From: Cyanidioschyzon merolae
Taxonomy: Eukaryota
Length of the DNA stretch: 64,000 nt
Reading direction: 5' to 3' (one strand)
NCBI GenBank assembly: GCA_000091205.1
Contig: AP006498.2
The notes below the pieces were generated by a model that was not told the origin of the DNA, searched no databases, and saw nothing but the letters and a program-made list of their open reading frames with translations. Shown piece by piece: positions 10,060 through 64,000 of this stretch; the first letter of the stretch is position 1; each line of letters opens with the position of its first letter. The position numbers and the translations under genes are program-made.

Positions 10060-10641
10060 CAGCGTCGTTGCCGAGGTTTATGTGTTCAGGTGCGTATGCC
10101 GCTAGCTTGAGCGCGTCAACCGAATGAGCAGCGGCTCGTGCACGAGTACCGGATCAATGAATGCACCGCTTTCTCGGTGCCTGGGGGCGACGCGAACAAC
10201 CGCTGCTGCTACCAAGGTATCGTGTTGAGGTGTGTCGCGAGCAATACGAGTCGGTAACAGTGGTATGGAGGTCTCACTGCTTCTGTCATGTGCTTACCAA
10301 GATCTACAACGCACGACATTCCGAAGTGGTTGGTGCTTGCTTTAGAGTCGGGCTTGAGGCCTAGCTCGTTTGCAGCGACGGGTGTTCTTGTCGGGGTGCG
10401 TTCGTTGCCTTTCCAAGCGTCGACGGTGACAACGTATGCCCAGCACGTACCAGAAGCACGTCGTCGTGTGTGTCTCTCGATGGACCACGACTTTTGGGTT
10501 GGCTTGGTGAACGTCCGTCGTTGTCGTTCTCGTTGTCTGCAGCGCAGCGCTCCCTTCGCGTTGACTTTGGCTTCGTGGTGCCTATCCATGGAAGCAGCGG
10601 TTCTCCAGAGCTGGTGTGTATGCGGCTTTGGAAGCATATCT

Positions 10642-12700
10642 CGTTACGCTCAGAGTAGTGAATTCTGGGCTGCATGCACCAGCACGCGCAATTGTTGCTG
10701 TCTGCGTTATCGCAGGTAGCCTAGAGAAGGAAAGCATGCTGTCGAGTGGAGAAATGATCACGGAATGACATGATGCTTTCATTGCTAGCCTGAGGAAAAC
10801 CGCCGCATTTCTCCAAGTCAGTCATGCTGCGGTCAGCGGGCGGATGAGGCGCCCTTCTCCCAGTGCATGTCGTGAACGGTACGCACCCAGAACGGTACTT
10901 TTTCGGTTCTAGCTGCACGAAGCGCTCCTCGTCGAGCAACTCCGCTCCGTGTGTTCTCGAAAACATCGTACAAAATGAGCCACAGGATGTGCAGTCTCGG
11001 CACCGTCGACACGAACGGTGATGGAGAGACACGGATACTCGAGGCGAAAAACACGCTTCCCTGGGGCAGCATACTGCGTCGAAGGATACACTGTCGATTT
11101 CGTACGGAAACGGGAACGCGTATTCCACGAGATATACGGACGATCGTCTCTGTCGATGAGACTTCATTTGGGTGCGCTGCTGCATCTGTACGTATTTGGG
11201 CGGAGAGGCGCAAACCGCAGGTCGTCAAAGAGCGACGAGTGAGCAGTCGGATACGTCCAGCCCCAGCGGCGCCTCGAGCCGGTTGTCTACTGCACATCAC
11301 CGAACGGGCGGGATCGTTCAACACCTCATGCTTCGTCGTCAGACGCTGTGTGGCTTTTTCGTTCCAGATGCATTTGTGCCGCTTTCGGGAATCGCCGCTT
11401 TCCATCCCTCAAGGCGGTCATGGGGCACGCGGCTGATTCTGGCGTCGAGCTGCTCTTGGTGCGCGTCTATGCTCCGTAGGTCGGTGGTGTCGAAGGCGTG
11501 GGCGTTGCCGGTAGACGCCATCTCTACGCTCATGGATACATAGATGAGTCTTTCGCATCCGGTACACCGAACGATTCGGGATGTCACTCGGAATGCGCCC
11601 AGCTGCTTACGCTGGGAAGACTCGCCTAGCTCGCCGCGCCTTGATGCACCTCGCCAAGCAAGTATTCGCAGAACTTTCGGACGCTAGGCTACCAGCTGTC
11701 CAGAGACCTCTCGAATTTTTCGATCAAACTTCCCAGCGACAATGCAAGTTATGTTCGGGTGAGAGGCTGCACTGCGAACGCATTTTCTCCCAGGCTCGCT
11801 GCAGTCGGGCGTTGGACATGATGGACGGCAGGGGGCATACCGACACACATGGAATGACGGCATCAGGACCTGTTTCAAAGCTCTGAGCATCGTACTGAGC
11901 AAACGGGGATGCTTTGAACGCTCTGTATAGTCAGCACATTTGCGTGCAACTGGCACATGCGTACAATCTATGGTAAAAGTATATGAGAAAGCGATCGGAT
12001 CGCCGATTGTATCAGTTGCATGGACGCAAGAAACATGCATTCACCAACTTGTCCAATGAGTTGGGAAATGAAATGAACAATGATTAGCATCGACCGGTTT
12101 TAGTGTATGGAGCTGGACTTGCCGTAGCGCGCAGAGTACGCCCCGCTGGTGCCCCTCCGACAGCCCACATCGAGTACGGGTAGCAATTCTGAACAACTCC
12201 CATCGATGCATTCATGACGACAGAAACGCATCTCGAGCAAGATTGCATGAGGAAACAGGTAGAGGATAAGAGCGTGAATAGAGCCGGATGCATGAGATGG
12301 TGTACTGCAAGGTGAACGAAAGTCAAATGGCGAGGTAATCGACGGTGAGCGACTTGCTATGTTCTGATTCGTCATGCAACCATGCCCGCAAACACTCTCT
12401 GCACTGCTACTTGCATGACGCGATCGATATGCAGCGAAATGTGTTGTGCTTGCCAGGCTTCCGGCAGCTTTGCGTTGAACGAACTTTCTAGGATATCGTT
12501 TAGTGCTCAGTATGAGCATAGCGCTGACAAGTCGCAGACTTTCGATGGCAAAAATCAGTGGCACTGCATCGAACGACTGGCTTCTATCCTGGTGCAAGCC
12601 AGTTGTGTGGTACGCTTCAGCAGTTCCTCAATGCTACAGCGCCGTGTGTATCCACCGGAAGCAGTTTTCCTGGCCAATTAGAAAGCGATCATAGTGTTCC
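10642..12700. mobile_element. Degenerate ~2-kb repeat element, copy 1 (IS630/Tc1-mariner-like DDE transposase remnants, tentative)
   Basis: 10642-11569 is ~98% identical to 18222-19149. The adjoining 11570-12700 aligns at lower identity with 19150-20640, giving the same segment order and orientation at both loci. Plus-strand frames contain DDE-transposase-like strings: IVSVDETSFG...RIWAERRKPQVVKERR, ...AGCLLHITERAGSFNTSCFVV, and LPAVQRPLEFFDQT (LPASRISLKFFDQT in copy 2). Several frameshifts are present, so this is a dead copy. Confidence 0.4.
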
Positions 12701-13212
12701 ACGATGCGATACAACTGATTCCATTTCCTCATCGCCAGGTCGCGACAGCTCCCGGCTCCGGCGGCGGCCTCTGTAAACTGCACCGGTCTTGGCCCGACTC
12801 GAGCAGTGCAGCGCACTCTGCGGAATATTTTTCATTCGGATGGATTGTACAGCGAACCGTCTCCAACCCGGTAACCCGTGGCCGTCTCGTATCGCAACGG
12901 TGATCAAATACGCGAAAACCGCTACCCCGAACAGCGCTGATCGTTCCCGGGGCTCGCGAATATTCGCGTACGCGCTAGAGCTCATCGTCCTATCCTCCAT
13001 CGCTCTAATCGAGTACAAGATATCAGCTGTGGCGAACGATCCTCGCCAGTCTCGCAAAAAACGCGGAAGCCTCCGCGATCCTCAGCTGCGCATCCGGTGA
13101 GGCTGCACCAAACGCCCAAACGCCTCAGCACCGCACTCGAGGCAACCCCAGCTCGATGACGATTAGATCGCATGTGCTCATGACGCATACCGCCGAAGCT
13201 GCAAACCAACGA

Positions 13213-14673
13213 TCACTTGTGCTTATCATCGTTCGAGTCAGCGAAGAAAAAGCGCCTCAAGCGCTCCCAGACAGTCCCCGGTTCCTTCTCCGGGGTCGAT
13301 GTCTTTTGCGGTTGAGGCCGCTCGCCTTGAGCTGCCGTTGTCGGGGTACCCCAAAACTGACGCCCGAACCAGCTATCCCAGCCGCTGTCCGCTCGTCGAC
13401 TCTGTTCATCGGCACGCTCAGCGGTTCGCCGCTGTGTCGGATCCCGACGACGCTGCAACCACTCCAGAACAGCGTCGAGGCGACTGAGGAGACTACCACC
13501 ACCGGAGGCAGGACCCTCGGTCGTGCGGCTACCGAGTCCCCAGCGTCGAGCTCTGCGGCGCAACGCCAACTCCTCTCGCAGATGTTCTTCTATGTACACG
13601 AAATAGAGATAACCAAAGATCGCTCCGCCCAAATGCGCAGCAAAGTCGATGTAGCCGAAGCGCCCGACGACACCGATGACGTCGAAGAGCACCCACAGCA
13701 GACAGGCTTCCTGTGCAGTCATCTTGATGCCCATGACGTAAAGGGATGAACGCGGAAAAAGCATCGCAAACATGACCAAAACCGCCATGACGCTACCGCT
13801 CGCACCGATGGAGACCGCACCCGACAACCGCAACCTTTTGTAAAGTAGACTCATCGCCGAGGAGAGAAAGGCACCTCCGGCGTATAAGGTGAGAAAGCGC
13901 GATGGACCGAGCACTTTGCACACATCTAGACCGAAATTGGCGAGAAGAAACATGTTCCCCAGAAGATGCAAGAAACCCATATGTGATATGGAGCTGGTGA
14001 GGAGCGTGTGCGTCCGCCCTGCGTAGAGCGACTCGAGCGAGCAGGCAAAATGACGCCACATGAACGGCGGTCCGCCTGGTCTGCTCTTCCATGCCAAGTA
14101 CACCAAACCATTCAGCAAAATCAGGGAAAGAATCGTACGACCTTCTCGTGACGCCCATGAGCGTCGGACCCGGTCGCCCATGCTGCGTACCCAGTCCAAT
14201 AGTGCGTCTAGGTTTTGCTCAAGGTCACCTGGACGAAAGCAGAGCGCTTGCGGACCTCCGTGTTGTTCCTTGCTACCCGACGGGAGCTTGTCTCTCGTTT
14301 GCGAAACACCGGACAAGTTGAAAGTGTCTGATTCGTTGTGCGAGACGCAGTGCCCCAGCACCGCAAGTCCGCCGAGACCGCTCCAGACTGCTGGGGCAGC
14401 GCTAGCACGGGCACCGCTCCAGCGGTAAAAGCGCGCCATTCGCCACACTGGGGTCTGGAGTTGCACGCGCAGCTTCTCTGCAAGAAGCGAGCTGCTCATT
14501 AGAGACATTCCAGCCTCGTGGCAGGTGCTTCGTTGCTCGACGAAGCCCGGACGGCATCCGGGGCTGTCGACCTGCAGCGGCCGAGCGACATACCGTAACC
14601 AGCGTCGACCAACAGAGCCAAGGCCCTGTCGAATCGGTCCAAGCATAGTCCCTGGTAACCGAAAGATGGTCAC
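13213..14673 (-). CDS. Rhomboid-family intramembrane serine protease (PARL-like?)
   Basis: Catalytic GxSG motif GASGSVMAVLVMFAMLFP and downstream catalytic His in AAHLGGAIFGYLYF. Multiple hydrophobic helices in the C-terminal half; long soluble N-terminal region. Listed start is GTG; first ATG at 14646. Confidence 0.7.
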   Translation of the reverse strand: MTIFRLPGTMLGPIRQGLGSVGRRWLRYVARPLQVDSPGCRPGFVEQRSTCHEAGMSLMSSSLLAEKLRVQLQTPVWRMARFYRWSGARASAAPAVWSGLGGLAVLGHCVSHNESDTFNLSGVSQTRDKLPSGSKEQHGGPQALCFRPGDLEQNLDALLDWVRSMGDRVRRSWASREGRTILSLILLNGLVYLAWKSRPGGPPFMWRHFACSLESLYAGRTHTLLTSSISHMGFLHLLGNMFLLANFGLDVCKVLGPSRFLTLYAGGAFLSSAMSLLYKRLRLSGAVSIGASGSVMAVLVMFAMLFPRSSLYVMGIKMTAQEACLLWVLFDVIGVVGRFGYIDFAAHLGGAIFGYLYFVYIEEHLREELALRRRARRWGLGSRTTEGPASGGGSLLSRLDAVLEWLQRRRDPTQRRTAERADEQSRRADSGWDSWFGRQFWGTPTTAAQGERPQPQKTSTPEKEPGTVWERLRRFFFADSNDDKHK

Positions 14674-15275
14674 GTTTGATCAGGACTGCGCTCGTCAGCG
14701 GTTGCGTCTGCAGCAGGTGTTCCCGTTCGAACGAACGAGCGAGCCCAGAAACCGCCACGTCACTGGACAGCGGCGAGGAGAAAGCAGGTGCCGCTGCTGC
14801 TGCAGAGCATTGTCGCGGATGCTGGTGCCGCGTTGTGCCGGGGGCGTTTCTGGGAGACCTCATCCATGGTCCTATCGTGACGACATGGCACTCTGGCGTC
14901 AAGTTGTGCAGGTATGTAAAGAGTCACGGGGTTTTGGCGAACAGTGTCGAGTCCGCGCTTCAAGCTCTGTGGAAAGGGCGCGTGTTTAGCAAGCGCTCTG
15001 GGGCACTGCGGACATCGAGAGAAACGCGCTGCTAGCGCATAGGAACAGGCTCGATTCCCCCAGTATCGATGATTATTAGCTTGAGCACTGATGAAGACTG
15101 CAGAGCGGCAGCAGAGCTTGCTGATTGCTGGGCGACAAGCACGAGACGCGAAGGCCACAGAGGAAACGCGGAGCTCCCCAAGGGACGACGCTCGCGCAGG
15201 TCGTCGAGCTTCAACGTGCCTGGACACCAGCTCGGAGGCCGTGTTGTCGACCGTTTGGATATCGTAGACAAAAGT

Positions 15276-17021
15276 CTACAGACCACTTGGGAAATGCGTT
15301 TGCCGCTCGAGGTTTTGAGCTGCTGTGGACTCACCAGCCCGCAGCATTCTTCGCATCCGCTTCGACGGCATTTCGGACGCTTGCGACGGCTCCAGGAGTG
15401 CCTGGCAATCCGAGTTCGCTTCGGAGCGTGCCGCCTCTTCGTTTTCAGGGACCTGGGGCTCTGTGTCACATGTTAAAGATTTGCCAGAGTGAATCGTTTC
15501 GGGTGCGACGCCATGCGTATTTTCCTTGTCTGCATCCGTCACGTTTTCGTTCAGTGCCGACGAATTCGACTCCGCGTTCATTGGCATAGCTCGCTGCGGA
15601 TGATCGACGGCCAGTTCATGATTGGAGCGTTGTCCATACAGGTTAAACTCGGCTTCTTGGTCTAAATTGCGAGCCGAGAGCGCTATTCGCCGAAGATGCT
15701 GCGCGTGGTCGCTCACGAGCCTATTTGCTTGCTGCGGTGCTGCATGAGAAGGATGCACTTGGAGCCGTGCGTCGCGACGCGGGCAATACGGCACGAGTGG
15801 CTTGCTTGGACGCAAACGTCGAAGCTCACCTCTTTTCCACCGCATGTACTGTTGAGCAGCGCCTTGTACTGCGAAAAACATCGCCCGCTCGGATGACTCA
15901 AAGCGGTGAAGCTGCTCGAGCGGGTCGCCGTCAAACGGGCTCTGGGCGCGATCAGCGATTTCAAGGCAGCGGGCCTGGTGAGCATCCAGCAGTACTGACC
16001 CGAGCTCCGCAAGCACTGCGTTACCGCCGCGCAAGCCATTCCTACTAGCAACGTTCCGAATGCGAAAATACTGCCGAAATCGTTGCACAACTGCATAAAA
16101 ATATGGGCATTTTTCGTTCAAGTTTGCGATACACGGGTCAGCGCGCAGTTCTCGAAGTGTTCTGGATCTCAGACTCGGCGGCAATTCGATGCGCACGAAC
16201 ATTCGTGCAGCCAACATTTCCGCCAACCAGAGTGGAAGATCACACGCCATATCGGGGAGCATGTCAAGTCCACCCGCGACCTCCTGCCGTTGCAAAAGTT
16301 GCTCCGATGAAGGGTTCGCCCCCGATGCCGACGCCCTCGTGACACCATATCCACTTGCTTGGAGCGCTGCCTGATGGGTCAAGGCAGCAGCAGCTGCTGC
16401 TGCTGCGGTCATGATGTCAGATCGATCTTTCGATAGTGCGTCGCGCGATAAGCGTCTCTCGAAATCCTGGACAGGTTCAGCTCTGTCTGATACACTGCTG
16501 CGCTCATTCTCCTGGGAGATGCCCTCTCCTGATGTCTCGGTGTGCGCGTGTACGAGGCTCGCAGCATTGACTTCGGCTTGCGCTGCGAATGATGCACCGC
16601 CGCTGGTGTCCAAACAGGCCATGCCTCGAACTCGTTCGAGGAAAACGCAGCGGAAACGGGTCTCCGCTGCGAGAATTTCATCTAGTGAATAGTAGTCTCT
16701 ATCGAGAAGCACGGGACCTGCATACGAGTTTGATCTTCGCTGGTGTTGACCGAAAGACGCTGTGCTGTGCGCGTGGCTCCAGGATTGCAGAGCGGGGTTC
16801 GTCCCCCGCTGGTTCATGGAAAGCGACACTGGGAGAGTCTCCGAATTATACCTGCCGACGAGCGTCTCTGCGCCGCGGGAGCCCATGCTTCCTTCTTTTC
16901 CGGACACAGGGAAGCGGTGATAGTGCCGCTGATTAAGCCGGCTTGGCGTAAACGACACCAGAGACGTTACTAGAGCGTGCTCGTGGCCTTGCCGATCCAC
17001 AAGCACCCAAGAAGCAACCAC
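15276..17021 (-). CDS. PSF3: GINS complex subunit Psf3-like protein with large insertions/extensions
   Basis: Matches GINS3 motifs: SLDEIL near the N-terminus, and DLPLWLAEMLAARMFVRIELPPSL...ADPCIANLNEKCPYFYAVV (human GINS3 has LELPLWLAKGLF...ELPKIY...ADPNVVDLHKMGPHFYGFG). Long Ala-rich and low-complexity insertions. Listed start is GTG; first ATG at 16886. Confidence 0.55.
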   Translation of the reverse strand: MVASWVLVDRQGHEHALVTSLVSFTPSRLNQRHYHRFPVSGKEGSMGSRGAETLVGRYNSETLPVSLSMNQRGTNPALQSWSHAHSTASFGQHQRRSNSYAGPVLLDRDYYSLDEILAAETRFRCVFLERVRGMACLDTSGGASFAAQAEVNAASLVHAHTETSGEGISQENERSSVSDRAEPVQDFERRLSRDALSKDRSDIMTAAAAAAAALTHQAALQASGYGVTRASASGANPSSEQLLQRQEVAGGLDMLPDMACDLPLWLAEMLAARMFVRIELPPSLRSRTLRELRADPCIANLNEKCPYFYAVVQRFRQYFRIRNVASRNGLRGGNAVLAELGSVLLDAHQARCLEIADRAQSPFDGDPLEQLHRFESSERAMFFAVQGAAQQYMRWKRGELRRLRPSKPLVPYCPRRDARLQVHPSHAAPQQANRLVSDHAQHLRRIALSARNLDQEAEFNLYGQRSNHELAVDHPQRAMPMNAESNSSALNENVTDADKENTHGVAPETIHSGKSLTCDTEPQVPENEEAARSEANSDCQALLEPSQASEMPSKRMRRMLRAGESTAAQNLERQTHFPSGL

Positions 17022-18221
17022 TCGTCTCTCTTGAGTAGGGAGCGCTGCCCCAGCGGATCTGGCGGTTTGAATTGAGGAGCGCGGGGTACGGGCGCGCCTC
17101 CTGCGCTGCGCTGCTGCGCGCCTTCCGATTGATGGGGTAGCAGATCAAAGGCTGATTGATGAATGCATGGTGGAGCACTTTGTATTTGAACGGGTCGTAG
17201 ATGAATGAATGAATGGTTTTTTGCAGAGCACTCTGTACTTCTTTCAGTAATAGGTAATTCGTTGATTTATCTGTAGAGATCTTTTTAGATGGAACGTCCT
17301 ACGATCCGGACACGTGCGCTAGCTACGTGCGCCTTGCACCCCTGCAGTGACGTGTACCGAGCTGACGTCTGCACAGCTCGAGGGCAATGCATGCTCCACG
17401 TGACTTCAAAGATAGGGGTCTATACCCAGGCCTCGATCTGGTCGCCGCACTCCTCGAATGTATCGGTCCGCGTTGGCAGTCTCGCGTGCGCAGAATTCCA
17501 GCGCGAAGCCTGACGACGAGTTCCGGCCTCACGCCGGGCGAACGGTGCCTCGCACCGACGTCCGCAGGTATACACTGTAAGGCTGTTCCGTCTCTAGATG
17601 GCGACCGCAGCAGCGCTTCCCCGCTGTAGCAAGCGTGCCGAATGCGCTTGGCACCAGGACGATCGCTCGATTGAACTGGCTTAGATTCTTCGGAGAAATC
17701 CTGCGTTGGAGATTATGGTGCATAGAGGCGGATGCGGAAGGACAGAGACTCTTTTGTTGCTCTCCGGTAGCGTTTGCGTATCTGGAGAAATCGCGGGTAG
17801 ACTCATTGATCTTGTACGGTGAAGAATTGTGCAATACCCGGTGGGATTCAGCTTTAGGATAATGCACCGTGACGGGTGCCCGGTGCAACGCCATGCATAT
17901 CGGTCCCATGCGCGATGATGCTTTTGGATGACTACGAGTCGCCGCTGCCGTCATTTTTGACCGAGTCGAGGTTGCGCAAGGATCAGCAGTTCGCCGTTTG
18001 GAATAGAGCGCTCCATGAATACAATCCGATGGATGCGATATCGACAGAAACACTCTATCAAGTATAACCGTTGTCATTACATTTGCTTCATTCGCGGAAC
18101 CTATTGAAATAGACTTGCAATCGGTTGTGGCGCATCACTGCCGTGAATGGCAACAAAAAAAGCAGCCGGCTCGGTTACAGCCGAGCGGCTGTGTTGCATG
18201 GTGTAATCAGCACACCGGGGC

Positions 18222-20640
18222 GTTACGCTCAGAGTAGTGAATTCTGGGATGCATGCACCAGCACGCGCAATTGTTGCTGTCTGCGTTATCGCAGGTATCC
18301 TAGAGAAGGAAAGCATGCTGTCGAGTGGAGAAATGATCGCGGAATGACATGATGCTTTCATTGCTAGCCTGAGGAAAACCGCCGCATTTCTCCAAGTCAG
18401 TCATGCTGCGGTCAGCGGGCGGATGAGGCGCCCTTCTCCCAGTGCATGTCGTGAACGGTACGCACCCAGAACGGTACTTTTTCGGTTCTAGCTGCACGAA
18501 GCGCTCCTCGTCGAGCAACTCCGCTCCGTGTGTTCTCGAAAACATCGTACAAAACGAGCCACAGGATGTGCAGTCTCGGCACCGTCGACACGAACGGTGA
18601 TGGAGAGACACGGATACTCGAGGCGAAAAACACGCTTCCCTGGGGCAGCATACAGCGTCGAAGGATACACTGTCGATTTCGTACGGAAACGGGAACGCGT
18701 ATTCCACGAGATATATGGACGATCGTCTCTGTCGATGAGACTTCGTTTGGGTGCGCTGCTGCATCTGTACGTATTTGGGCGGAGAGGCGCAAACCGCAGG
18801 TCGTCAAAGAGCGACGAGTGAGCAGTCGGATACGTCCAGCCCCGGCGGCGCCTCGAGCCGGTTGTCTACTGCACATCACCGAACGGGCGGGATCGTTCAA
18901 CACCTCATGCTTCGTCGTCAGACGCTGTGTGGCTTTTTCGTTCCAGATGCATTTGTGCCGCTTTCGGGAATCGCCGCTTTCCATCCCTCAAGGCGGTCAA
19001 GGGGCACGCGGCTGATTCTGGCGTCGAGCTGCTCTAGGTGCGCGTCTATGCTCCGTAGGTCGGTGGTGTCGAAGGCGTGGGCGTTGCCGGTAGACGCCAT
19101 CTCTACGCTCATGGATACATTGATGAGTCTTTCGCATCCGGTGCACCGCTTTTCGACAAGTCGCCCTCAGTATTCACCAGCCATGAACTGCTCTGTTGCG
19201 GCTCTGCTCAATCGAGGTAGGGAGCGGAAAGGTGCGCCTTTATCAGTAAGCATGCTCGCGACGGAGAAGGTGACGAAAACGTACTTGAGGAATATTCCAT
19301 AGATGTATGCAAAAGGCGAGTTTCCCACACATCGTCGACCTAGTGAGTCTCATTCTCCAGGTAAAGCGGATTCGTCATACATCGCCCACATGTATGTTAT
19401 GCCGCATGTTCAACAGAAGAAAATGAAGAAACCACCGGGCAGAGAGCAGAAGGAACAGAAAGCAGGAACAGTCACAGTAGAAAAATTGGTCCTAAACTAT
19501 TACCGAGCCCTGTCATCCCGGACACACCAACAGGGAGAATCTATCAAAAAGCGAGATGCAGGGCGTCATGGAGGATCGCGTAGCTTCCTACTCGAGGGGG
19601 GCTCTTCCGGCTTCTCCCGCCTTGACGAACCTCGCAAATCGACTGTTTGTGAGCATCCGGGATGCAGGGCTGCCAGCTTCCCGAATTTCTCTGAAATTTT
19701 TCGATCAAACCTTCTTGCGAAAGCACAACGAATGCCCGGGACGGAAGATGCAAGACGACCTGGCTATGGGGTCAGAGCATTGTGCACACGCTTCCCAGAA
19801 TACATGGAGACGTCGCAGCGCAACGCTCGAGATCGAAATGAACCAAAGCCCAGGTGCCAAAAAGGCATCAAGACTATCTCAAAACCCTAAACGATACACG
19901 GGTCAATGTGGAGCGCCGCAGGAACGGCACCCTGTGAGCGCGGTTCCCGCGTCTCACTGACCGCGGAATGTACGGACTGATAGAAAGGATTCTATACTTC
20001 AGAGATTAGATGAGCATCCAGAATGACTCATGCCAGCGCCCTTCGGACGGAGTGCATAAAACCGTGCTGGGGTCGCCACTGGATTCAATGGCACGGAGGC
20101 AGGAAGCGCATGTTCGCCAGCTTGTTCAACGAACTGGAAAAGGGACTAACGGGTACGCCGCGTCGTTTCATTACAGACTCTGGCGCTGGACGTACCGTAG
20201 CGCACGCGGACGCTGCACGCATCGACCTTCGACGAAAGCGTACACAGCGCGAGAATCGATTCTGTACGATTCCCATCGATGTGTTCAGGACGACGTGCAC
20301 ATAGCATGAGCACGACTGCACGCCAAGTCAAGTATAAAGGAATGGAACATGGAGCCCGATGCACGACATGGGGTATAGAGAGATGCCCGAACGCCAGATG
20401 GCGCTGCAATCGAAAGGCGAGAAGCTTGCTATGGTAGGATGGCACCAGCACGAATGCCTGCATGCACCCTCTGCACCGAGACTTGAACGCCGTGATCACC
20501 ATCAGGAAATGCGTTGTGCTTCCGGCGCGTCCAGTGTGTTCGTGTGAAGCGAATTCCAAAGGAAATCGTTTATAACTCACTTTGGGCACTGAGGTCCAAC
20601 GCTGCAGACTTGCCATCAAAATAGCACTCAGTGGCTACCA
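18222..20640. mobile_element. Degenerate ~2.4-kb repeat element, copy 2 (same family as 10642-12700)
   Basis: 18222-19149 is ~98% identical to 10642-11569. Downstream 19150-20640 is diverged but colinear with 11570-12700 (conserved aatttttcgatcaaac block and FFDQT-encoding region; 20085-20321 and 12084-12330 encode related peptides). Immediately upstream lies a perfect-stem hairpin gcagccggctcgg-ttaca-gccgagcggctg preceded by an A-run (18150-18186). Confidence 0.4.
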
Positions 20641-20663
20641 GAGAGAGGGAGAGAGAGAGAGAG
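20641..20663. repeat. (GA)n microsatellite
   Basis: gagagagggagagagagagagag. Confidence 0.85.
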
Positions 20664-20860
20664 CTTCGGATTCCCACCGCCTGAAGCACGACACTGGCAT
20701 GGAGCAATCAGCAATCCATGTAGGCTGCAGCGCCATATCCATAGATCGGACACGTTTTTCCTGGGCATTTCGTCGACGATAATGGTGTCCTATTATTCAG
20801 TATAACTGGGCATACCAGAGGAATCCGCAAAATCGAATCTTCCTCATTCGCTTCGCTCCT

Positions 20861-21850: not shown

Positions 21851-22583
21851 TGAACTGGACAGGTTGTACCTGCTGTGCGATTCTTTTCGGAACTAATTTT
21901 TTTCGCTGTACTTCCTTGACATTGGAGGTGCAGCGACAAGGGCTTGCGAATTCATGTGTATTTTGCGGATTCACGGTCGTGTATTCGGAGAGGCTCCTTC
22001 GAGACGCGGCTGTTGAAATCGGGTCCGTCATCGGAATCGAGATGATTTGCGACGCACTCGAACGATGCCTCGTAAAGTGACGGACATCATGATTCAATGC
22101 ATGTGTAGCATTCGCCGTGCTTCACATATGCCAGCGTGTAGCATGCTCGCATCATGCACGCTTCAAGCTTTCGATTTTTTCATTTGAAGGCAACTGGTTC
22201 GCGGAGCAATCTGTGGCGCCCGATTCACGACTAATCAGATAGAACCTTGTCCGTCGACGATTTGTTCGCAAGTTCATGCAGAGATTTCCTGAAACTCCTC
22301 ATGCCAAATCGTCGATTCGCCTCGAAATACAAATCCTCTCCTGTTTGTTGACATCCGCGAATCGCGATTCGACGGCAGCGGAATCATTCACGTACGGGAA
22401 CAGCTCCATGAGACTTCCGTCCCTCTTCTTCCCATGGAATCGAGTCTCGGTCTCGGACTTGCATTATCAAATGGATCGCATGTACTGAAGCCTGCGTCAT
22501 CGCTGTGTACGAAGCGGTCGTCGACGGATCGAGATTTCTCGACTTGGTCTCCAGCCTAGATTGTCCCACCGGTACATGTTTCA

Positions 22584-22950
22584 TCATACACAGCATCGCG
22601 TTCCACCCATGCATTCTATCGAGTGGAACAGCGTAAGCTTGCACGCACAGCGGACACAGTACGCGCCCAGTGTATCACCCAGAAGCAGCCTGTGATCGTC
22701 GTCCACGACAACAGGCGCGGAAACAAATGAGAATAGCTGGGAGAGCCCACTGTACCCGTCATGCGCATGCAGCAAACGGCGAGGCAAGCGCTCACGCGGC
22801 ACAGGGCTACTCTCGAAGGAGCCGATGTGCTGGACACAGACGGGAACCCAGCGCAGTGTCCCCGCTGGGAAGCGCACCCCGAGACTCGATGCAAAACGAC
22901 ACGAGTATGGCACGCCAAGCATTGACAGCAACTGCTGCTTCTGCATGGAA
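22584..22950 (-). repeat. Diverged dispersed repeat, copy 1 (pairs with ~41190-41560)
   Basis: Minus-strand translation ...PVPRERLPRRLLHAHDGYSGLSQLFSFVSAPVVVDDDHRLLLGDTLGAYCVRCACKLTLFHSIEC aligns with the 41-kb copy ...PVARERILHRSMVAMDRRSRPASLRFSVSASDVVFYDHGNVLDGPGGEYAVGCSCKRTRFHSIEN over >65 aa. Weaker similarity to the 3' parts of the 10.6/18.2-kb elements (12100-12215, 20146-20280). Confidence 0.35.
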
Positions 22951-31159: not shown

Positions 31160-32588
31160 TTGGCATCCAAAGAGCTAGCAGTCCTGCTGTACCTGGGTTG
31201 TCGCGGATGCGCAGGGCCCCAGATCATCATGACGCTCTCTGGTCGGACGAAGGGCACGCTAGTGCACGGGACGCTGGAGAGGACCACGCTTGCTAACTCT
31301 GTAAGATAATCACAACTGGTGCAGCGCAAGTCCCATGGGATGATGTGGAGCTCACGGCGTTCTTTTCGGTGATGATCGCTAGTTTGCCTCAGGTGAATCA
31401 AGGATTTTATATGAGCAACAAGCTAGCCAAAGATATTCGCATGAAAAATGGTGCATCTGTGGGGCCCGGCTCTTGTCTGCGCCTTTCGAACTATGGAACG
31501 GTGCTCGTCGCCAATGCGCTTGTCATCACACTGCAGAATCATGAAAAGCCGCTTCTCGCAAGTAGCGAGCGATGGATGACGCTACACGCACCCGACCTCC
31601 GGAGACGGCATGCGCATTGCACGACTGACGTTTCGTAACGCTGCCACAAGAGCTAAAGCGGCTACACAACGATACGGGAATCCTTGCGTCTTTTTTTGGT
31701 GTGCTTGAAGGCTGTTTACTGTTACCAGCGGATCTCCGATTGCACGATGGGTCTCGGTCTCCGGCGAAAAGCATCCGCGATTCCACAGCATGCCCTCAAG
31801 TTCTGCGAGCCAGCACCTCACAGACTTTTCCCTGGGGACATTAGCCAGTACGTATGATCCGCTGGATGCCGTACCGACCGAACGTGCCGAGAATATTGGC
31901 TACTGCGCTGCTGGGTACACCTCGCAGAGACAGAACGACATTGTCGTTCACTGTTGCATGCTCGCTTGAGACGTCCATATTCCAGCACGGGGTCAGGTAT
32001 CCGGGTAGCAGGGTATTCGGGTGCAGCATGCCGGCACGATCGCCTGCCGCAGGACTCTGCTGCAACATACCTCCTGGGCGGCATGCATGCATGCAATGAC
32101 GATTCCTGTACTCGTGCCGCATTCAAACGGAACACTGAACAGCCCGCTCTGTTCCTGACTTTTGCTTTGTCTTGAAATGTATTTGAGATGGACAGCTTGG
32201 ACATTTGAATTGCAGCAATATGGCTCTACGGATTCCTGCGTGATTTTTGAATAGTTGGTTGTTTTTTCGAAGTGGTTCTTTCTCGACGCTTTGCCGCCAG
32301 AATTCGTTATGTCACCGGAATCAGGATGATTCGCGACACCTTGTCACAAGGGTACGCGAAAGAACTCATATCCGAATAGATTTCGTATGTGCAACCATTC
32401 TTGCTTCTCCTTTTGTTCTGTGCGGCATGCACAAAACACGCATGCTTCAAGTTTCCCATCTTTCTATTTCAGGGCAATTCTTCAGTGCAACAGTTCGCTT
32501 CGTTGAATCGACGGCGGAACAAAACATGATGTCGTCGTCACCTGGCGCGTTCATATGTTTGATCAGTGAACCAAAAGAATCTCCAAAT

Positions 32589-33096
32589 GACCATGTGGGG
32601 TTACATGAATACCCACGCGCAGACGCCTCCCTACGTTCTTTGACGGGCCGCCTGCTATCGGTTTGAGGTTATCGAGGCACATTTCGAGCCTGGGAGGCTG
32701 CCCCTCGAAGTTAGATAGGCGCAGCTCCGCGGATCTCGTTTTCAGCACCACAAATCGTCTGATACTGATGGCGTCGATGAAGACTCTGTTCATGAACTCC
32801 TTGCGTTTATTGCCTCTGGCTGGACTCACCAGTGCAAATACTGCCAGAACGCGTGCCTTTCTTGCCACTACAGTCTTGTGATCTTCCCGTCGGGCAAAAA
32901 TCTTTTCAAGTCGATCTCTCATCGACCTCCTCTTCTTCGTCATTACTAGCTCTTCTTCGCTCGATGGTCGAAGAGAAGATGATTCTCTTCGTTTATTTGC
33001 CCGGAAGCTAGCGATGACGGTGCTCCAGGTTCCCCGACTTCCATGCCCACAACTTTCCCTGGGGTTGTGCATTTCTGAAAATGAACGCACTTCTCT
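32589..33096 (-). mobile_element. Internally deleted (~0.5 kb, MITE-like) derivative A of the TnpB/Fanzor-like element
   Basis: Shares both termini with the full-length element 56691-58958: RE-proximal block accatgtggggttacatg...cagacgcctccc and LE-proximal block ...gaaaatgaacgcacttc. Retains the RuvC-III-encoding segment (KEFMNRVFIDAISIRR) in an open 175-codon ORF (32563-33090) that spans the deletion junction. Confidence 0.6.
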
Positions 33097-33402
33097 ATGC
33101 CCTTAGGTGAGGACCTTCACGGAGTGCGAAGGACTTGCGGAAGAAAGACGACATGTGCTCCGGTGTCACCGTGCGCTGAGCGCTTCAGCGATTCGCCCAG
33201 TGGAACGACCGTTACGTTTTACGATAGAAAACACGCATACGATGCACTTGAGCTATGGATTGTATGGAGGAATGAAAAGATGCTCTGCCCCGATAGAATC
33301 GGCAAGAGCTCGAACGCAAGGGGAATGATGAAATGCCACGTTCTCCAATAGAGGAATGTCGGCAAGTGTCAGGGTAAAGTCTTCAATGATTCGATAAAGT
33401 GG

Positions 33403-33648
33403 GTGCTGTTGTATGAGGGTTACCCACTCGAGAAACTACGGCCGCAAAATGAATCCATTGTAGCTAGAATAGATGATGTCTTAGTTCGCTTCGAGTTCGA
33501 TCGAACATATAGCAGGCTCCTTCTCTGCGAATACCCATATACGTTCCAACCGTTTTATCCGAAGCAAGCCTTATCGATAGAAGAAAACAAGCCGATGTCC
33601 TTGCGGTACATTACCGATCTCGACGTTCCAGGAACGCTGTCGTCGTGA
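33403..33648 (+). CDS. Small hypothetical ORF in a lower-GC island
   Basis: 81-aa ORF (MLLYEGYPLEKLRPQNESIVARIDDVLVRFEFDRTYSRLLLCEYPYTF...) inside an AT-richer ~1-kb stretch (33100-34100) adjacent to derivative A. No homology recognised. Confidence 0.2.
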   Translation: MLLYEGYPLEKLRPQNESIVARIDDVLVRFEFDRTYSRLLLCEYPYTFQPFYPKQALSIEENKPMSLRYITDLDVPGTLSS

Positions 33649-35151
33649 TTTCGATGGAGGATGCGCGTTCGTGAGCCAGGTCTTTTTTGCGGGACTATGT
33701 CCCAGTGTAATGTGCGCCACACGAAGAACCTGTTGAGAAACAGAGACGCCTTTGGTAGCCTCTATCGTCGCTTATGCTTCTCGTATGGTGATTATCGGGT
33801 CGTTTTCTACCATTGACCACGAGCAAGCTTTGAGAGCATCGGGTTGTTGGTGCGGAGCGAATATTCTTGTTTCTTACAGTGTTCCTCAACCATCTGAATA
33901 CTGTGGTATGAATGACATGAATGATGAATGCCGTCCTCCTTGCGCGGTTCAATGAAGAAGATAAATCCTGCAGGCAATTTGTCTTCGATTTATGCAGTAC
34001 CTTGCATCGTGATTTCCACCGCCTAACATACACTACAGCGGGGGTGAAACAAAATTGAGGTGAAACAGTATAACAAGCTCTTGCAGACGGTTTCTCTGTA
34101 CTTGTCACGTCCAATCATAGATTCGGTACGGAAGACGGATCCCTCTCTCTTTGCAGCGATCTACGAAGCGGCATTCGAAAGGAGCAGCTCGAAACTGCTC
34201 CCGGGATCCGGCCCCAGGGGCTGCAGTCTCTTCTGACTGCATGAGAAACAGTCTCGAACTCGGACTAGAGTCAACGTTGCGATCGCTCCTAGTACAGACA
34301 ACGACAACACTTTGCAAAAATATCCGCATAGATGGATCGAAATTTCTCGACCTGCTCGTCAGTCTGGATTATCCTTTCGGTCTCTGTTTCACCATGAGCA
34401 GCATCGCATTCCGCTGATTTTCTGCGGTACAGAACTGCGTGTTCTCGCTTCTGCAATGGACAGCGTTGTCCTCGAGGACATCGCACATAAAAAACCTTTC
34501 AAGATAGCGTACGGTACTGAGAGGAGATAAGGAAGGCGTATATCATCGGGGCGCCTTCTGCTCCCGTCAGGATCACGTGCCGAGCGATAGGGGAAGTCTT
34601 CATGCGACACGGGGCGGCGCTCGTAGAAGACTCTATATTGAACATATGGGAACACCTGACCACAGTGACGCGTCACCGCTGCCACGGGCGTACCGAGGCT
34701 GCGTCCAAACAAGATGAAAAGTGCGACGCAAGGCTAGATCGCATGTTCAGCTTGTGCATGAAACGCACCGACAACAGCTGGAGGCAGCGTCATCGGGACG
34801 CAAGCTGCTATCAACCTCCTTCCACGGATGATAATCGCACCTGAGGGAATGGAGACACCGGCGCATGCAGAGCTACAGATAAGACAGGAGGAAAGGAGGA
34901 ATTCGCAGAAAACCCCCATGAAAGCTAGAATTGATAACAGCGGGAACAGGCCCAAACTTGAGTTTGTCAGCACGATATAGCAAAGTCGACTCGTTCCATG
35001 CTATACGAACATGGGTGTAAGAGCAGATCAAATCTGCACTTGCTGTTGCAGATGCTTCGTATGCCACAGTGCAGCGCGCGCAGCGATTTGCTCTCTTTCT
35101 CGCTGCCATACGGGATACGCGCCTTGCTAGATAGCCTAGACGTCGAAGCAG

Positions 35152-36393: not shown

Positions 36394-38838
36394 GGTTTTG
36401 GGAATGAGCATTGACCATTTGATCATTCCATTTGGATGCTGCTGCGGAAATCAAGCAGTTTCGAACGTACTCGAAGCACTTCCTGATTCGTACTCGTACC
36501 GATAAATTTTGGACCGCCGCTACAAGACGATCGACGCCTTGAGCTCGGATCGCGCTGTTGCGTTGCTTTGCGTGGAAGTATGCAAAGCCGCCGGGATGTT
36601 TCCTGGGGCGAAAAGCGTCTTTATTGGGAACGCGCTAGGTATGCCGTGTGTTGGTCGAAGCATTCGTCGAATCTATTCACCTGTACATCGCAGCATCGCG
36701 CTTTGGTTTCATATTACGGTCTTGGTGCACTTCGGGATTTTCTACCGGGTTACTTTGGGCATGGCATTCTCGTTGACGGTCTGTATATGCAGCATATGGC
36801 ACCTGGTTCCAATTGGACTCGAGGCCCATGGCGAAGGCGCACGGACACATTCCGGAGTATGATGAGGCATCGCCGGTGCACTCAACTGCTGGTGACCTTC
36901 AGGAGGATCCACAGGTGCCCTCATTGAGATGAAAACGTTCGTCGACTTGAAGAACATCATTGAGCAGCGGCGTTTTCCGAATGGTTTCAATCTATGCCAA
37001 CAACTGCAATCGAGACGGTCACTGATTTGAAGCGGTGCCATCGAGGCGACAAGAGCCAAAGACCGCTGGTCGACGGTGCGAATCGATATCCGTGTAGATG
37101 CCGGCAGCGTTCAGCGTCGCCCAAGAGCACCTGCAACCAGACTGACCGGTGTATCCGTTCGGCGGGAGAATTTGCCCGCTTCACTACGACCGGTCAGGTC
37201 GCTGGACGGTAACCTGTGTTCGGTCTATGCTCCCACTGTCGCAGCTGGCAGAATGGGTGCATCTGCGCCCCCTCGGATTGCTGCGGGGCGTCGGCGCTGG
37301 CTTCGTCCATCTTTTGCAGGATATCTGCGGGCGCATCAGGGTGCTTCGCACGTGCGCCGCTCTTTACGGGCAGGCCCAGATGTGGCTTCTCCTGCGCGGT
37401 CTTCTGAGCCATCACGCGTCGATGTGGTCCTTTCCAGCTTACAAGACTGCTTCGTGGATGCGTCTGCAACGCGAGGAAATCCCCGGTTCCCGTTCTGCAC
37501 GACACGTCTCACGACGAACTGAACAAATTGTTCACGCTGGTCAGCGCCGGTAAGCGAACGAACGACTTGGCGCAGGCCTGGTGTCACAGTGCGCTCACTC
37601 CAGAGAATATCCGCGAGTCCGGTCGCAATATCCATCGCCATCAAGTAGTTTCGATTCGCATTCATTGGATCATCGAGATCTTCCGATTCTTGATGGTCCA
37701 GATTCATTGGCCTCGCGGAGCTTTCAGCCACCAAGTCCGTCGTTTGCGCTGCCCTAGGGCAAGCGCTTTGCGAATGACCGCGTTTTACAGCCGAATGTAG
37801 TAGCCCTGAAGCAGGCGAGGGTCTGCTTGGGGAAGGCTCGTGGTTCATCTGGGATTGTCTTCTTGCTTCGTAACTGCCTGAAAGAAAGCTGAGGTCTCGC
37901 TTCACGGCTTTTCCGAGACTCTGGCGCGTAGAAATTTCCAGGGGATTGAAACCACGAAAGAAAGTCTCTGTTCCGTGATACTTGCACCGACGGACAGCGT
38001 GCCGCAGCACGCATGTATGGCGACACGGATGCCACCTGGGACACGTGTACGACCTGGGACGCTGATGCGCACGATGCGCCCTCACTTGAACTGTCCGTGA
38101 CATGCTTGCACGCAATCGCCAGCGCAGATATTGTTCTCTTCAAGGGGTATACTAACTGCATCTGGCAAGGTGTTGCGGATACATGATTGCTGCTGCTGGT
38201 GATCTGGAACGAAACCTCACTTGTTGCGCAGAAGCACCGACTTTTCGCTTGCTTTATACCGGGCTTACCCACGAGACCACAGGCCCGATTGATCTTGCTG
38301 CCCTGCGGGGGTATGGTGTCAGTCGCAGGTGTCGAACGGAGACACGACGCTGTTTTGCTGCTTTGACGGGCGTCGGCTCGATGCGTGCATGACGCGACAC
38401 GCAACATTGACGTGTGCGGGCATCTGCGGCCGTATGGGCGCTTCTTCTTGTACGACTTGCCGTCAGCGCCCTGACTAGGCCTCGGGAACGACCACGGTGC
38501 TCGGATGACCCCGACTACGAGACCATCCGGTGCATCTACTTCACCGCATCTGCTAGGTGATAGACGACAACCTTCGCTCTGGCGCCGTTCCAGTCCAAGG
38601 GCGTCTGCGGGCTGCAAGCCAGTGGATGTATTGGGCGCCAGCGGCGGAATGCGCAACTCGAACGCTATGCTGCCTCCACTGTCGAGAAGGAAATGAGGCA
38701 CCACGTCGCTTGTGCATGCTCACGTGAGTACCGTGAACCATCCAAGAGCCAGAAGACGCGCGCTGGACACGCTGCCAGCACGGAATGCATCACATGATAT
38801 TCAGTAAGGTGATCTGTGAAACGAAAAATGTTCTACGA

Positions 38839-39353
38839 TCATTTAGGGTACATTGATATCCGGCCGCAGATGCCACCCGGCCTTTTTTGACCGGCCGACT
38901 CCTACCGGGTTCATTTTCCCCTTGTACATTTCGACTCTGAGACGCTTCCCCACGATTTTGGATCTCGTCAGCTCCTCGGGTCTCGCCTTCGGCACCACAC
39001 ATCGTCTGATACTGATGGCGGCGTTGAAGTCCCGGTTCACGAACTCCATGCGTTTATTGCCCCGGGTTTAACTCACGAGTGCGAGGATTCATCGAACACG
39101 TGCCCTCAGTGCGACTACAGTCTCTTCTTCGCCTAGTCGGGGAAGCACTTTTTCTCGCGTACCTACCCTCGTTTTCTTCTTCCTGTTCGTCATTTGCTCT
39201 TCTTCGCTCGATAGTCGTCAAGCAGGGCATTTTTCGTTTCGCTTTTGTCGAACCCGGCGATGGCGGGCCTCCAGGATACCCCGGCTACCATATCCATAAC
39301 TTTTCCGTAGATTTTTTAAAAGTAAGCACACTTCGAACCTGTCAGCTATACAC
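38839..39353 (-). mobile_element. Internally deleted (~0.5 kb) derivative B of the TnpB/Fanzor-like element
   Basis: RE-proximal block catttagggtacattg...gcagatgccaccc and LE-proximal block ...ccatatccataacttttcc...cagctatacac. Encodes MEFVNRDFNAAISIRRCVVPKARPEELTRSK (RuvC-III motif; ORF 38843-39049). A TGA lies at the position where the full-length copy has GGA. Confidence 0.6.
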
Positions 39354-41189
39354 CGCGAAGAAGCACTTGATGACACGCACCTGGCAGAGGAACGCAATAC
39401 GGGCGAAGGACGATGATCACGGCTGTGCAACTGTGCTTGCTTGGTGCACTTCTGTGTGCACTGGGAGCGTTTGCGAGACCAGAGGACAAGCGTTGAACCC
39501 GTCGATTCTACTCCGGCAAAACAACCAGCACATGTGTTCCGAATCATCGGATTCCGTTCGTGGCTACCGAGTTATTCTGCGCGATGTTCGGGCGGCTGGA
39601 GCGACTAGACGACATCGCCTTTTGCTGGGTGTCTGCTTCCAGCATGGAGCATCCCGGGGCTCAACGTACCGTTCAGCGAATAGATGCGCGCGCCGCAGAG
39701 CTTCCATATGCTACTGGTGACTCGGCAGTTGCGTGACGATGCTTTAATGCTTCAAAGATCCGTATCTTGCATGCCGACTCGCATCTATTGTCGCTGAATG
39801 GTCCAGCGAAGAGGACGTAGCGAACAGGTCCCTCAGCATCGACAAATTCGACTTCGCACAGTGCGGAGTATTTCTCAGTGCTGAACTTTGTCCCTGGTGC
39901 TGCTGTTATCGACTGGACGACCATAATTTCCTCCGCCCGAGGGCGACGCAGCATTAGAAATCCTTTTTCCATGCCCAGACCAGAACAAATAGCGAAATCG
40001 ACACTTGTCAGCGTTTCAGGCGCATGAACCTGCATGGGTCTTACTCGCTTTCAAAGCGGTTTCATTGAAATCTAGAACGCCATTGCTGGAGTAATGCCAG
40101 CCGAATTATTTGAAGAAAAAAAGAAACCCCGCGCAAGCAAAGCTTTCTCTTCGCTAGAACTGGTCGGGAAAGAGACGTGACACGCGGTGCGAAACCAGGA
40201 AACACTTTTTGATGATGTAATCATTGGTGCAGTTGTCCCGTCTCCTCAAATGATGGTGCGACCTCCGACCTTCGAAAGCTCAGAAGCGCCGGACAGTCTC
40301 TAATTCATTGCCCGATTCAGTTCACCTATCGATCAGGAGTGTTCCACTGCTCCAAAGCATTCGGCCCGAACGGCACTCGACGGATGCAGCCGTTGCTTAA
40401 GAACTTGAGTGCGCCGAACTGGACGATACGTTGCTCCACCCGCGTCACTTGAAAAGGCACACTGAACTGCTCGGTCACTTCGCGCTCCACGATCTTTCCC
40501 GAACTTTTTTTTATTGATGCACAACCTCGATGTTCGAAGTGCGGCAATATGGGGCTGAGGATCCGTACGTAGCCTTAGCATTCTCGGTCGTCTTTTTGGA
40601 GTGGCTTCTTCGGCTCTACGCCGCTCAATTTCGTTCTGTCATCGATTCCAAGGTGTTTCGGGATGCAGTCGACCAAAAGGTTCATGACATGACCGACGCC
40701 ATCATCGAATCCATAGGTACAAGCCTCCATTCTTCTCCTCTTGCATACGTTGATCATGCGCAAATCACGCATTCTTCACGTTTTCAACCCGTGTGTCTCA
40801 AGGCAAGTCGTGAATGCAGCGATTCGTGCCTCTGGGTTGATGACGAGAAATACTCGACGTCATTGCTTGACAACTTCATCTCAAGCTCATGAAGAAACTT
40901 CACTGGACTTGTCACGTCACGTAATCGATTCCGTTCGAAAGACAACTACGCATCTCTTTGTGTCCATTGACCGCATAACACGCGAAGCCGGACTGATACT
41001 TCTCGCTGTATATGTCCCGAGACGCTCCCGACTCTTCTGTCTGTATGGAAAGGGGTCTTGGACTCGGATTCTCGTCATTGCAGCGATCGCGTCTATTAGG
41101 ACGTGTGTAACCAGGTTGCACGAAGAGATCGTAAACGGATCAGGAGTTCTCGACTTGATTTTCGCACTGGATTTTCCATTTACTACTTG

Positions 41190-41560
41190 TTCTATCAAGG
41201 ACACTATCGCATTCCGTAAATTCTCTATTGAATGAAATCGCGTCCGCTTGCAACTGCAGCCGACAGCGTACTCGCCCCCGGGGCCATCCAGAACATTGCC
41301 GTGATCGTAGAACACGACATCGGAAGCAGAAACGGAAAAGCGCAGCGACGCAGGCCTGCTCCTCCTGTCCATAGCAACCATCGAGCGATGGAGGATGCGT
41401 TCACGCGCCACAGGGCGGCACTGGGCGATACCGGTGTCGTCGATGTATCCGAAAGCCTGACCATAGCAGACCGCCGCCGTTTCGAATGCAACACCGTGGC
41501 TGTACACAAATACGATAGATGTGGCAAGCGATTCGTAGATCGCATCAACCGCCTGTGGAT
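41190..41560 (-). repeat. Diverged dispersed repeat, copy 2 (pairs with 22584-22950)
   Basis: See the 22584-22950 feature for the peptide-level alignment. Embedded in ORF 40917-41594 (225 aa, no recognisable domain). Confidence 0.35.
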
Positions 41561-53446: not shown

Positions 53447-54003
53447 GACTTTTGGCTCGGCTTCCGCTGACATGGACAAAGGCGTGTGCGCGCTTCTCCT
53501 CTGCCGGCATCGTTTTTCTCTCTGGTACCTCTGCCTGGGAAGATGTCGATCTCGCGTGCCGCTCGAGCTTCGTTGTCGGCAACTGAAGAATGCTCATGAC
53601 AGCGTTCAAGTTCCGGTTACGCAGCTTCCGGCGCTTGCAGATGCATATCATGCACACACAAAAGCTGCTCCCTACGCTCCGCTTGTCGTTTTGCACCCGC
53701 TTTGCATGCGGCCTCGGTGCACATTTCGCGGCAGCGACAGCTTGCTGTGGTCGGATCTTCGCGTGTGGCCACCAGAGCACCTCCTCAACGCCTTTCTCGA
53801 TTTTTCAGCACCAGGTGCCGTATCCTAAGACCACGGGCTTCCTCGGGGACGATCACTTTGGTTCGTACGCTTTCTGCGGCACGCGCAAGTGCACGCTCTT
53901 CGATACGATAGAGGGTGTGTAGAACGCGATATTGTCCATGATGAAACGAGGACTCGAAGGAAAAGCAAGGCTCGAGCAAAACTCGGGAAACTTCGACCCG
54001 TGT
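53447..54003. repeat. 555-bp direct repeat, copy 1 (~99% identical to 61887-62446)
   Basis: Alignment by eye starts at ggctcggcttccgctgacatggacaaaggcgtgtgcgc and ends at ...ctcgggaaacttcga(c/t)ccgtgta, with only a few mismatches. Lies in the S18-GET3 intergenic region. Encoded peptides are unrecognisable. Confidence 0.6.
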
Positions 54004-63720: not shown

Positions 63721-64000
63721 CGCGAAAAAGTATATGGCGATACGCACCTGGAGATGGAATACAATGCAAGTGAGCGACTGTAGGATCATTGCCATCGGGG
63801 CGTGATGAATGATTGGCATCGCAGGCAAGTGTCTCGGCCACGTGCCGCGCGGCTGTGCAGCCGCTGCTGACAAGTGTTCCGACTACGACAGCGTTTTGTG
63901 TAACCGAGTCTGGGCAAACTGTCTCTAAGTTCACGGAGCCATGTCTTCTTTGCCAAGCCAGGCAGGTTCTGGTGGTTCTGGAGGCGATCCTGGTGAGAGG

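Follow-up and report, generated by a model that had tools for sequence, protein, structure and literature searches.

[quoted passage not shown] In the same study, TE-N2_CMe corresponds to the 5' 635 bp of CMe-1A, and Fanzor elements were described as frequent chimeras whose 5' transposase parts are alike while their 3' parts differ (PMC3627910). Elements that combine a mariner/Tc1-type transposase with Fanzor1 are known from Pythium ultimum (PUl-1; Bao and Jurka 2013, PMC3627910), and IS630-Tc1-mariner transposases occur together with Fanzor in elements of a Chlamydomonas giant endogenous virus (bioRxiv 10.1101/2024.09.03.611062). Here we analysed a 64,000-nucleotide stretch of C. merolae DNA, called the window below, which belongs to chromosome 16 of strain 10D; its 3b-HSD, GINS Psf3 and ThiE proteins are identical to those of 10D (BAM81839.1, CYME_CMP212C and BAM81836.1, respectively). 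The CMe-1A consensus and the 734-aa CMe-1 protein used for comparison were taken from the supplement of PMC3627910.

The window contains two related elements in the same orientation, A (10647-12717, approximately 2.07 kb) and B (18226-20808, approximately 2.59 kb). Both are intergenic. Copy A has a pyridine-nucleotide oxidoreductase gene on one side and a rhomboid gene on the other, and copy B sits between the GINS gene and ThiE. The two thus form direct repeats, separated by 7.6 kb, on either side of the GINS (Psf3) and rhomboid genes. BLASTN self-comparison and MAFFT alignment revealed a 928-bp block on the plus strand, at 10642-11569 in A and 18221-19148 in B, which is 98.7% identical between the copies and has sharp edges on both sides. 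The 12 differences are all substitutions (6 transitions and 6 transversions), and there are no indels. A preliminary description of this DNA had reported two segments of about 0.9 kb with about 98% identity, which agrees with our result except that its coordinates for B were one base too high. The G+C content of the block is 56.4% in copy A against 51% in the rest of the element; more broadly, the block (approximately 56.5%) exceeds both the unconverted parts (51-53%) and a third, more decayed copy described below (47.5%).

Downstream of the block the two elements are much less alike. Default BLASTN found only one 269-bp piece at 67% identity. When we used local alignment, 11573-11771 of A matched 19555-19752 of B at 64% identity (score 48 against 10.3 +/- 1.6 for shuffled sequences), and 11978-12717 matched 20051-20808 at 64% over 730 bp (score 140 against 12.6 +/- 1.7). 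The downstream parts are thus colinear, as had been proposed, but the earlier estimate of about 70% by eye was too high, and the homology extends to 12717 and 20808. The length difference of about 400 bp noticed earlier was also recovered and is mainly due to a 406-bp segment (19149-19554, plus strand) that is present in B alone, contains the transposase tail, the spacer and the Fanzor start, and begins exactly where the identical block stops. At the far end, the 3' tails run to the end of the A-B homology at 12515-12717 in A (ending in GATACAACTG) and at 20534-20808 in B, both on the plus strand. The tail of copy B carries a weak TIR-like sequence, TGAATAATAGGACAC, 10-24 nt from its end, which is not significant.

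The 928-bp block consists of a 95-bp leader followed by nearly the whole of an IS630/Tc1-type transposase gene of about 290 aa with its ATG at 10736. The pseudogene occupies 10736-11569 in A (aa 1-277) and 18315-19148 in B, both on the plus strand; the block is therefore not the 5' part of a transposase but essentially a complete transposase gene with its leader. A search of 5.8 billion sequences with the frame-corrected translation returned six proteins (best E 3.6e-14, about 30% identity over about 92% of the query), all of which carry Pfam DDE_3. In agreement with this, tblastn placed transposase aa 15-277 on 10775-11569 of A and 18354-19151 of B, and an HMM of the transposase family matched the window with i-E values down to 8e-10. 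An end-to-end alignment of the relic gave 31% identity, with the DETSFG and GSFN motifs retained. The relatives of the transposase pass Pfam DDE_3 (E 1e-19 to 1e-26), score 119-156 bits against the curated NCBIfam IS630 model, above its cutoff of 100, and show DD34E spacing. The relic itself gave 13-18 bits with the same model, under the 100-bit cutoff, and this was its sole transposase match among the curated profiles; Pfam searches of 12 frames (six per copy) and of single pieces yielded no transposase match and only a weak HTH_50. Such a result is expected of a decayed pseudogene. Exact-protein look-ups of the ORFs inside the block gave no match. The preliminary description had identified IS630/Tc1-type DDE remnants in the plus-strand frames and had regarded a missing DDE_3/Tc1 profile match as evidence against them. 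The direct match is indeed missing on the relic, which comes close to that case, but the assignment is upheld through the homologous proteins, which pass both the DDE_3 and the IS630 cutoffs.

Lesions of the transposase gene are largely common to the two copies. In-frame stops at 10766, 10910 and 11477 of A correspond to those at 18345, 18489 and 19056 of B, and one further stop is private to each copy (10976 in A and 19035 in B). Two frameshifts, at approximately 11119-11134 and 11337-11339 of A, are also shared, and the second catalytic Asp is replaced by Gly in both copies (AFGNR in A), with the first Asp and the Glu kept. The gene was dead before A and B were last made alike, and the two copies are descendants of the DD34E family rather than active members. 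An alternative genetic code was considered for the stops and rejected, as both TGA and TAG occur and the neighbouring genes are long standard ORFs.

The diverged downstream half, which had been left unidentified earlier, is what remains of a Fanzor1 (TnpB-like) gene that has lost large internal parts. In tblastn, the CMe-1 Fanzor1 protein of Bao and Jurka matched copy A with E 4.7e-11 and copy B with E 2.7e-13, and this protein and the second ORF of the metagenomic relatives matched 11785-12285 (E 5e-11) and 20020-20415 (E 3e-13). In copy A, CMe-1 aa 67-131 map to 11563-11763 and aa 464-706 to 11785-12514; the corresponding features on the plus strand are an N-terminal piece at 11573-11771 (E 2e-6), which is the segment 64% identical to 19555-19752 of B, and a C-terminal half at 11785-12514 (E 5e-11 to 6e-13). 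In copy B, the plus-strand pieces are aa 29-156 at 19415-19839, supported by the CMe-1 mapping and by HMM, and aa 516-689 at 20020-20533 (E 3e-13 to 2e-17; HMM 4e-15). Each copy has thus lost 330-360 Fanzor codons with different breakpoints, approximately aa 132-463 in A and aa 157-515 in B. The region with the RuvC-I GxDPG motif is gone from both, neither copy has a complete split RuvC domain (D...E...D) with a zinc finger, and the genes are fragments. When the Fanzor ORF of the relatives was searched against Pfam and NCBIfam, the only match was a weak Cas12f1-like TNB (E 0.031), and it is therefore the homology with the CMe-1 Fanzor1 protein of PMC3627910 that identifies this ORF.

Scanning metagenomes with the transposase alignment, we confirmed 117 relatives, from which 80 loci were retained. 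At 45 loci with at least 1.5 kb of downstream sequence (L004 and L005 included), a Fanzor homologue lay directly downstream of the transposase on the same strand in 42, and in none of the 45 was Fanzor upstream or on the opposite strand. In this clade of short transposases of about 290 aa, Fanzor linkage is therefore nearly obligate. The second ORF encodes 530-641 aa, begins 20-260 bp after the transposase, carries the motifs GVDPG, DEFRTT and DRDxNA, and is 33% identical to the CMe-1 protein over 670 aa (E 2e-112). TIRs and TA were seen in L004, L013, L015-L017, L020 and others, and the resolved elements read TA|CACTCAGACAAGTGAATAATGTTACAC ... |TA, with 27-nt TIRs and lengths of approximately 2,975-3,290 bp. 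In every relative with resolvable ends the left flank is GTTA, and the right flank is TA followed by variable bases.

The same left flank is found in the window, where A and B both read CGTTA. In copy A the GTTA lies at 10643-10646 on the plus strand; its TA, the presumed target-site duplication, stands immediately left of the element (10645-10646), as does that of copy B (18224-18225). When we scanned 128,000 positions with the 29-nt family TIR, the best match of the window was at 18224 (18224-18252, 20/29) and the second best at 10645 (10645-10673, TA followed by CGCTCAGAGTAGTGAATTCTGGGCTGC, 19/29), both on the plus strand, and only 0.1 matches of at least 20/29 are expected by chance in the window. 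These two positions are the left edges of B and A, indicating that the 5' edge of the block is the left terminus of the element. The next-best matches were at 34072, 72 bp upstream of the transposase start in the third copy (C); at 59021, where the Fanzor ATG of the full CMe-1A copy follows after 124 bp; and at 63782, just upstream of a CMe-1A deletion derivative. This significant scan was made in register with the better-defined TIR of L013, and free local alignment brought out no significant match between the left end of A and the ends of L004 and L005. On the right, searches for a TIR arm in A, B, C and the CMe-1A copies, using both the family TIR and their own left arms, remained at chance level. 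Neither A nor B has a TA at its inferred right end, whereas intact relatives have TA on both sides. Of the TIRs and TA duplications that the preliminary description had proposed to look for, a left TIR remnant and a left TA are observed in A and B, but no right counterparts.

Other relics of the family occur in the window. Copy C, a third composite copy that was absent from the earlier reading, lies on the minus strand at 32614-34072 and is more decayed; from its TIR-like end at 34072 it consists of a transposase relic (33964-33113), a segment corresponding to CMe-1A 869-966 (33092-32988) and a Fanzor C-terminus (32955-32614). Its transposase relic abuts position 869 of the CMe-1A consensus, and through this junction the transposase is connected with the CMe-1 family itself. 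At the DNA level, the transposase relic of C has no detectable similarity to A. A near full-length CMe-1A copy without the transposase is present at 56711-59738 on the minus strand (79.5% identity to the consensus over 3 kb), and short CMe-1A deletion derivatives are found at approximately 38.9-39.4 and 63.2-63.7 kb. The fragments at 22.6 and 41.2 kb, which had been related to the 3' part of the element, turned out to resemble each other instead (22423-22798 against 41032-41407, 63% identity, score 86 against 11 +/- 1.4 for shuffled sequences), and at the DNA level neither of them significantly resembles A, B or C. The one at 40762-41217 (relic D, plus strand) is a very degenerate transposase remnant with a weak match to positions 76-222 of the family HMM (i-E 3e-4), and that at 22423-22798 (relic E, plus strand) gave a marginal match. 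Both are thus older transposase relics and not relatives of the 3' part of the element.

We then considered how the block came to be nearly identical within elements that are otherwise so diverged. We suggest, with a probability of about 0.8 and for the 64-kb window, that A and B are ancient, dead insertions of an IS630/Tc1/mariner element with Fanzor1, and that their 928 bp have been homogenised by ectopic gene conversion. This is in line with two points of the preliminary description, which had proposed old insertions of one DNA-transposon family and homogenisation of the 0.9 kb rather than a recent duplication. The intact element would have been about 3 kb long, with 27-nt TIRs, a TA target duplication, a DD34E transposase of about 290 aa and Fanzor1 on the same strand 20-260 bp downstream. 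In OMEGA systems the transposase excises the element and reinserts it at TA, and Fanzor, together with an RNA from the right end of the element, probably cleaves the vacated site, with the result that a copy of the element is restored there. In the case of the direct repeats A and B, ectopic (non-allelic) gene conversion may have homogenised their longest uninterrupted homology, with tracts that would be limited by the terminus of the element on the left and by the 406-bp indel on the right. The shorter, interrupted Fanzor segments would have dropped out of conversion and diverged to about 64%. The identity steps from 98.7% to 64% exactly at the 406-bp indel, which argues that conversion was confined to uninterrupted homology, and the G+C enrichment of the block fits GC-biased conversion. 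Since homologous recombination could not start between sequences diverged to 64%, the model needs conversion to have been continuous since insertion. GINS is essential, and crossovers between A and B are for this reason probably lethal, so that only non-crossover conversion would be visible.

Here, we need to consider whether conversion can be followed between strains. Metagenome contigs orthologous to the window match it at about 99% identity, and those that are long, L006 and L007, include both A and B. Within each of these two contigs A and B are more alike than orthologues are between strains, but all of their A-B differences lie within 48 bp of the block edges. In L007, seven sites are derived in both copies, and the identity of the interior possibly comes from repeat collapse in the assembly; the signal of concerted evolution may thus be an artefact in which a collapsed short-read repeat was pasted twice. 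The strain comparison agrees with conversion but is not taken as proof that conversion is ongoing, because the A-B differences in the metagenome contigs are all near the block edges. In the finished 10D genome, the 12 A-B differences are evenly spread and 10 of them are private to 10D. This distribution, together with the possible artefact in the metagenome evidence, would suit a single fairly recent copying event, such as a template switch or one long tract of conversion or repair, by which one transposase relic was replaced with the other and after which nothing further took place. We regard such an event as unlikely, because it needs recombination between sequences that were by then only about 64% identical. 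The G+C enrichment suggests repeated biased conversion instead, and the seven derived sites shared by the paralogues in L007, if trustworthy, point in the same direction.

Recent transposition was rejected as the source of the near-identity. A different form of recent mobility would be a young non-autonomous unit, mobile on its own and equal to the block, which had recently and independently inserted before two old Fanzor relics. It would have a parallel in TE-N2_CMe, which is the 5' 635 bp of CMe-1A, and in the chimeric Fanzor elements already described (PMC3627910), and the sharp edges and the lack of indels are what such a unit would leave. However, the right edge is a deletion breakpoint in A and not a terminus, with A-B homology resuming beyond it at 64%, and the transposase frame of B runs past this edge into the tail, the spacer and the Fanzor start. 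A TIR is found at the left edge only, it is improbable that old Fanzor relics would twice have received such a unit independently at one and the same place and in one orientation, and copy C shows the order of transposase then Fanzor without being homogenised. We therefore consider a young unit very unlikely. We give still less credence to a functional block, that is, a domesticated gene, a regulatory element or a non-coding RNA kept alike at both sites by purifying selection, an alternative of constraint that the preliminary description had left beside homogenisation. The high identity is limited to one segment, gene callers predict ORFs on both strands, and the first 78 bp of copy A lie within an annotated hypothetical gene, CYME_CMP209C (10288-10719), as might be expected under selection. 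Against this, all transposase frames are broken by lesions common to both copies, the block ORFs have no homologues outside the transposase family, and Rfam gave no matches in the window. Moreover, between-strain divergence in the block amounts to 6-17 differences per 928 bp, which is not lower than in flanking non-coding DNA and is higher than in genes. We flag CYME_CMP209C as a probably spurious annotation.

On the reading of old insertions homogenised by conversion, the unclassified Fanzor family of C. merolae becomes linked to a transposase through the composites A, B and C, and the CMe-1 family gains a likely classification (IS630/Tc1/mariner, DD34E) as well as a left terminus; the architecture itself is already known elsewhere. 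The searchable literature appears to contain no description of a C. merolae form that bears the transposase, of a TIR remnant in the CMe-1 family, of the nearly obligate link between this transposase clade and Fanzor, or of GTTA on the left flank. The GTTA stands on the left flank only in every resolvable insertion, A and B included, which is expected if TA plus the two upstream bases are the target-adjacent motif of Fanzor, and we put it forward as a candidate for this motif. We tentatively propose, as an idea more apt to fail than to hold, that the short DD34E clade may be the missing autonomous partner of CMe-1 and that GTTA may be the target-adjacent motif, with the target choice of the transposase and the specificity of the nuclease having co-evolved. 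The homogenisation of dead repeats is documented here in one of the smallest and most repeat-poor eukaryotic genomes; it is ordinary biology, and A and B leave the general understanding of Fanzor/transposase elements unchanged.

When we compared A and B with the closest described systems, CMe-1A shares the host and a homologous Fanzor1 protein, but A and B have a transposase in place of the 5' 868 bp of CMe-1A. BLASTN against the CMe-1A consensus gave no match for A and 49 bp at 78% for B, and A and B are a related but distinct, or an older, subfamily. PUl-1 and the Chlamydomonas viral elements have the architecture of the family, in which a transposase of the DD34E type and Fanzor1 lie on one strand between two TIRs with a TA duplication, in about 3-3.6 kb. 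The window copies differ from them in being dead and internally deleted and in having a short transposase (about 290 aa) of a distinct Fanzor-linked clade, which is also set apart by the invariant GT before the left TA. With the bacterial IS630 family, the relatives of A and B share the match to the curated NCBIfam IS630 model, the DD34E spacing and the TA duplication, whereas the element described here has a eukaryotic host and a Fanzor1 passenger gene. Finally, concerted evolution of dispersed repeats by ectopic conversion is known with the same features, namely a tract bounded by heterology, G+C enrichment and no selective constraint, but the units here are dead transposon relics on either side of the GINS (Psf3) and rhomboid genes.

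In CMe-1A, the published C. merolae Fanzor1 family, a TIR-like sequence was found inside the consensus. It lies at 59021 on the minus strand, at about consensus position 782, preceding the Fanzor ATG by about 124 bp, and matches the family TIR, the 29-nt terminal inverted repeat query from metagenomic relatives of the transposase in copies A and B, at 18 of 29 positions. The internal location of this sequence suggests that it marks the beginning of the real Fanzor element. The first ~780 bp of the consensus at the 5' side, of which TE-N2_CMe forms a part, would then be a different sequence that has been attached to it.

The window also contains three deletion derivatives of CMe-1A of ~0.5 kb each, all on the minus strand (32560-33093, 38810-39398, and 63207-63765), which are 68-75% identical and in which the region of the Fanzor start (about 826-969 of the consensus) is fused to the element's terminal ~240-340 bp. 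A guide RNA would be expected within this terminal part. One of the three constitutes the Fanzor part of copy C, the third transposase-Fanzor composite, and the derivative looks like a propagated mini-element.

The left flank is GTTA in every resolvable element of the transposase-Fanzor family, while the right flank consists of TA and variable bases. The left-flank set comprises the metagenomic relatives L004, L013, L015-L017, L020, L021, L024, L026, L037, and L039, together with positions 10643-10646 and 18222-18225 of the window. The GT either belongs to an asymmetric terminus or reflects a target/TAM-like requirement.

At the left end of copy A, CYME_CMP209C (BAM81833.1; 10288-10719, plus strand) is annotated as a hypothetical protein of 143 amino acids. 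Since the cluster listing contains no homologues beyond Cyanidioschyzon, this gene call is probably spurious. The final 78 bp of the ORF extend into copy A, covering sequence of its left TIR and leader. Three orthologous contigs of ~7 kb from independent metagenome assemblies (L008, L009, and L010) span about 10110-17130; all of them end about 0.4-0.5 kb past copy A and have one end about 1.1 kb short of copy B, so that the contig breaks lie away from the repeat edges.

Relic D, a very degenerate transposase remnant (40762-41217, plus strand), reads open through 152 codons despite its decay. A second near-identical pair of direct repeats is located at 53451-54004 and 61893-62446 (554 bp, 99.3% identity, four differences), with sharp edges and unrelated flanks. 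The pair shows no similarity to CMe-1A or the transposase, and may represent a further repeat that is either homogenised or young.

At their 3' ends (56640-56720, 38790-38870, 63160-63240, and 32540-32620, minus strand), the CMe-1A-type copies in the window share a tail formed by a short hairpin (CCATGTACCCTACATGG) and a subsequent T-rich run. In contrast, the tail of the published CMe-1A consensus has the hairpin GCCGCCA...TGGCGGC followed by the T-run GTTTTTCTTTT.
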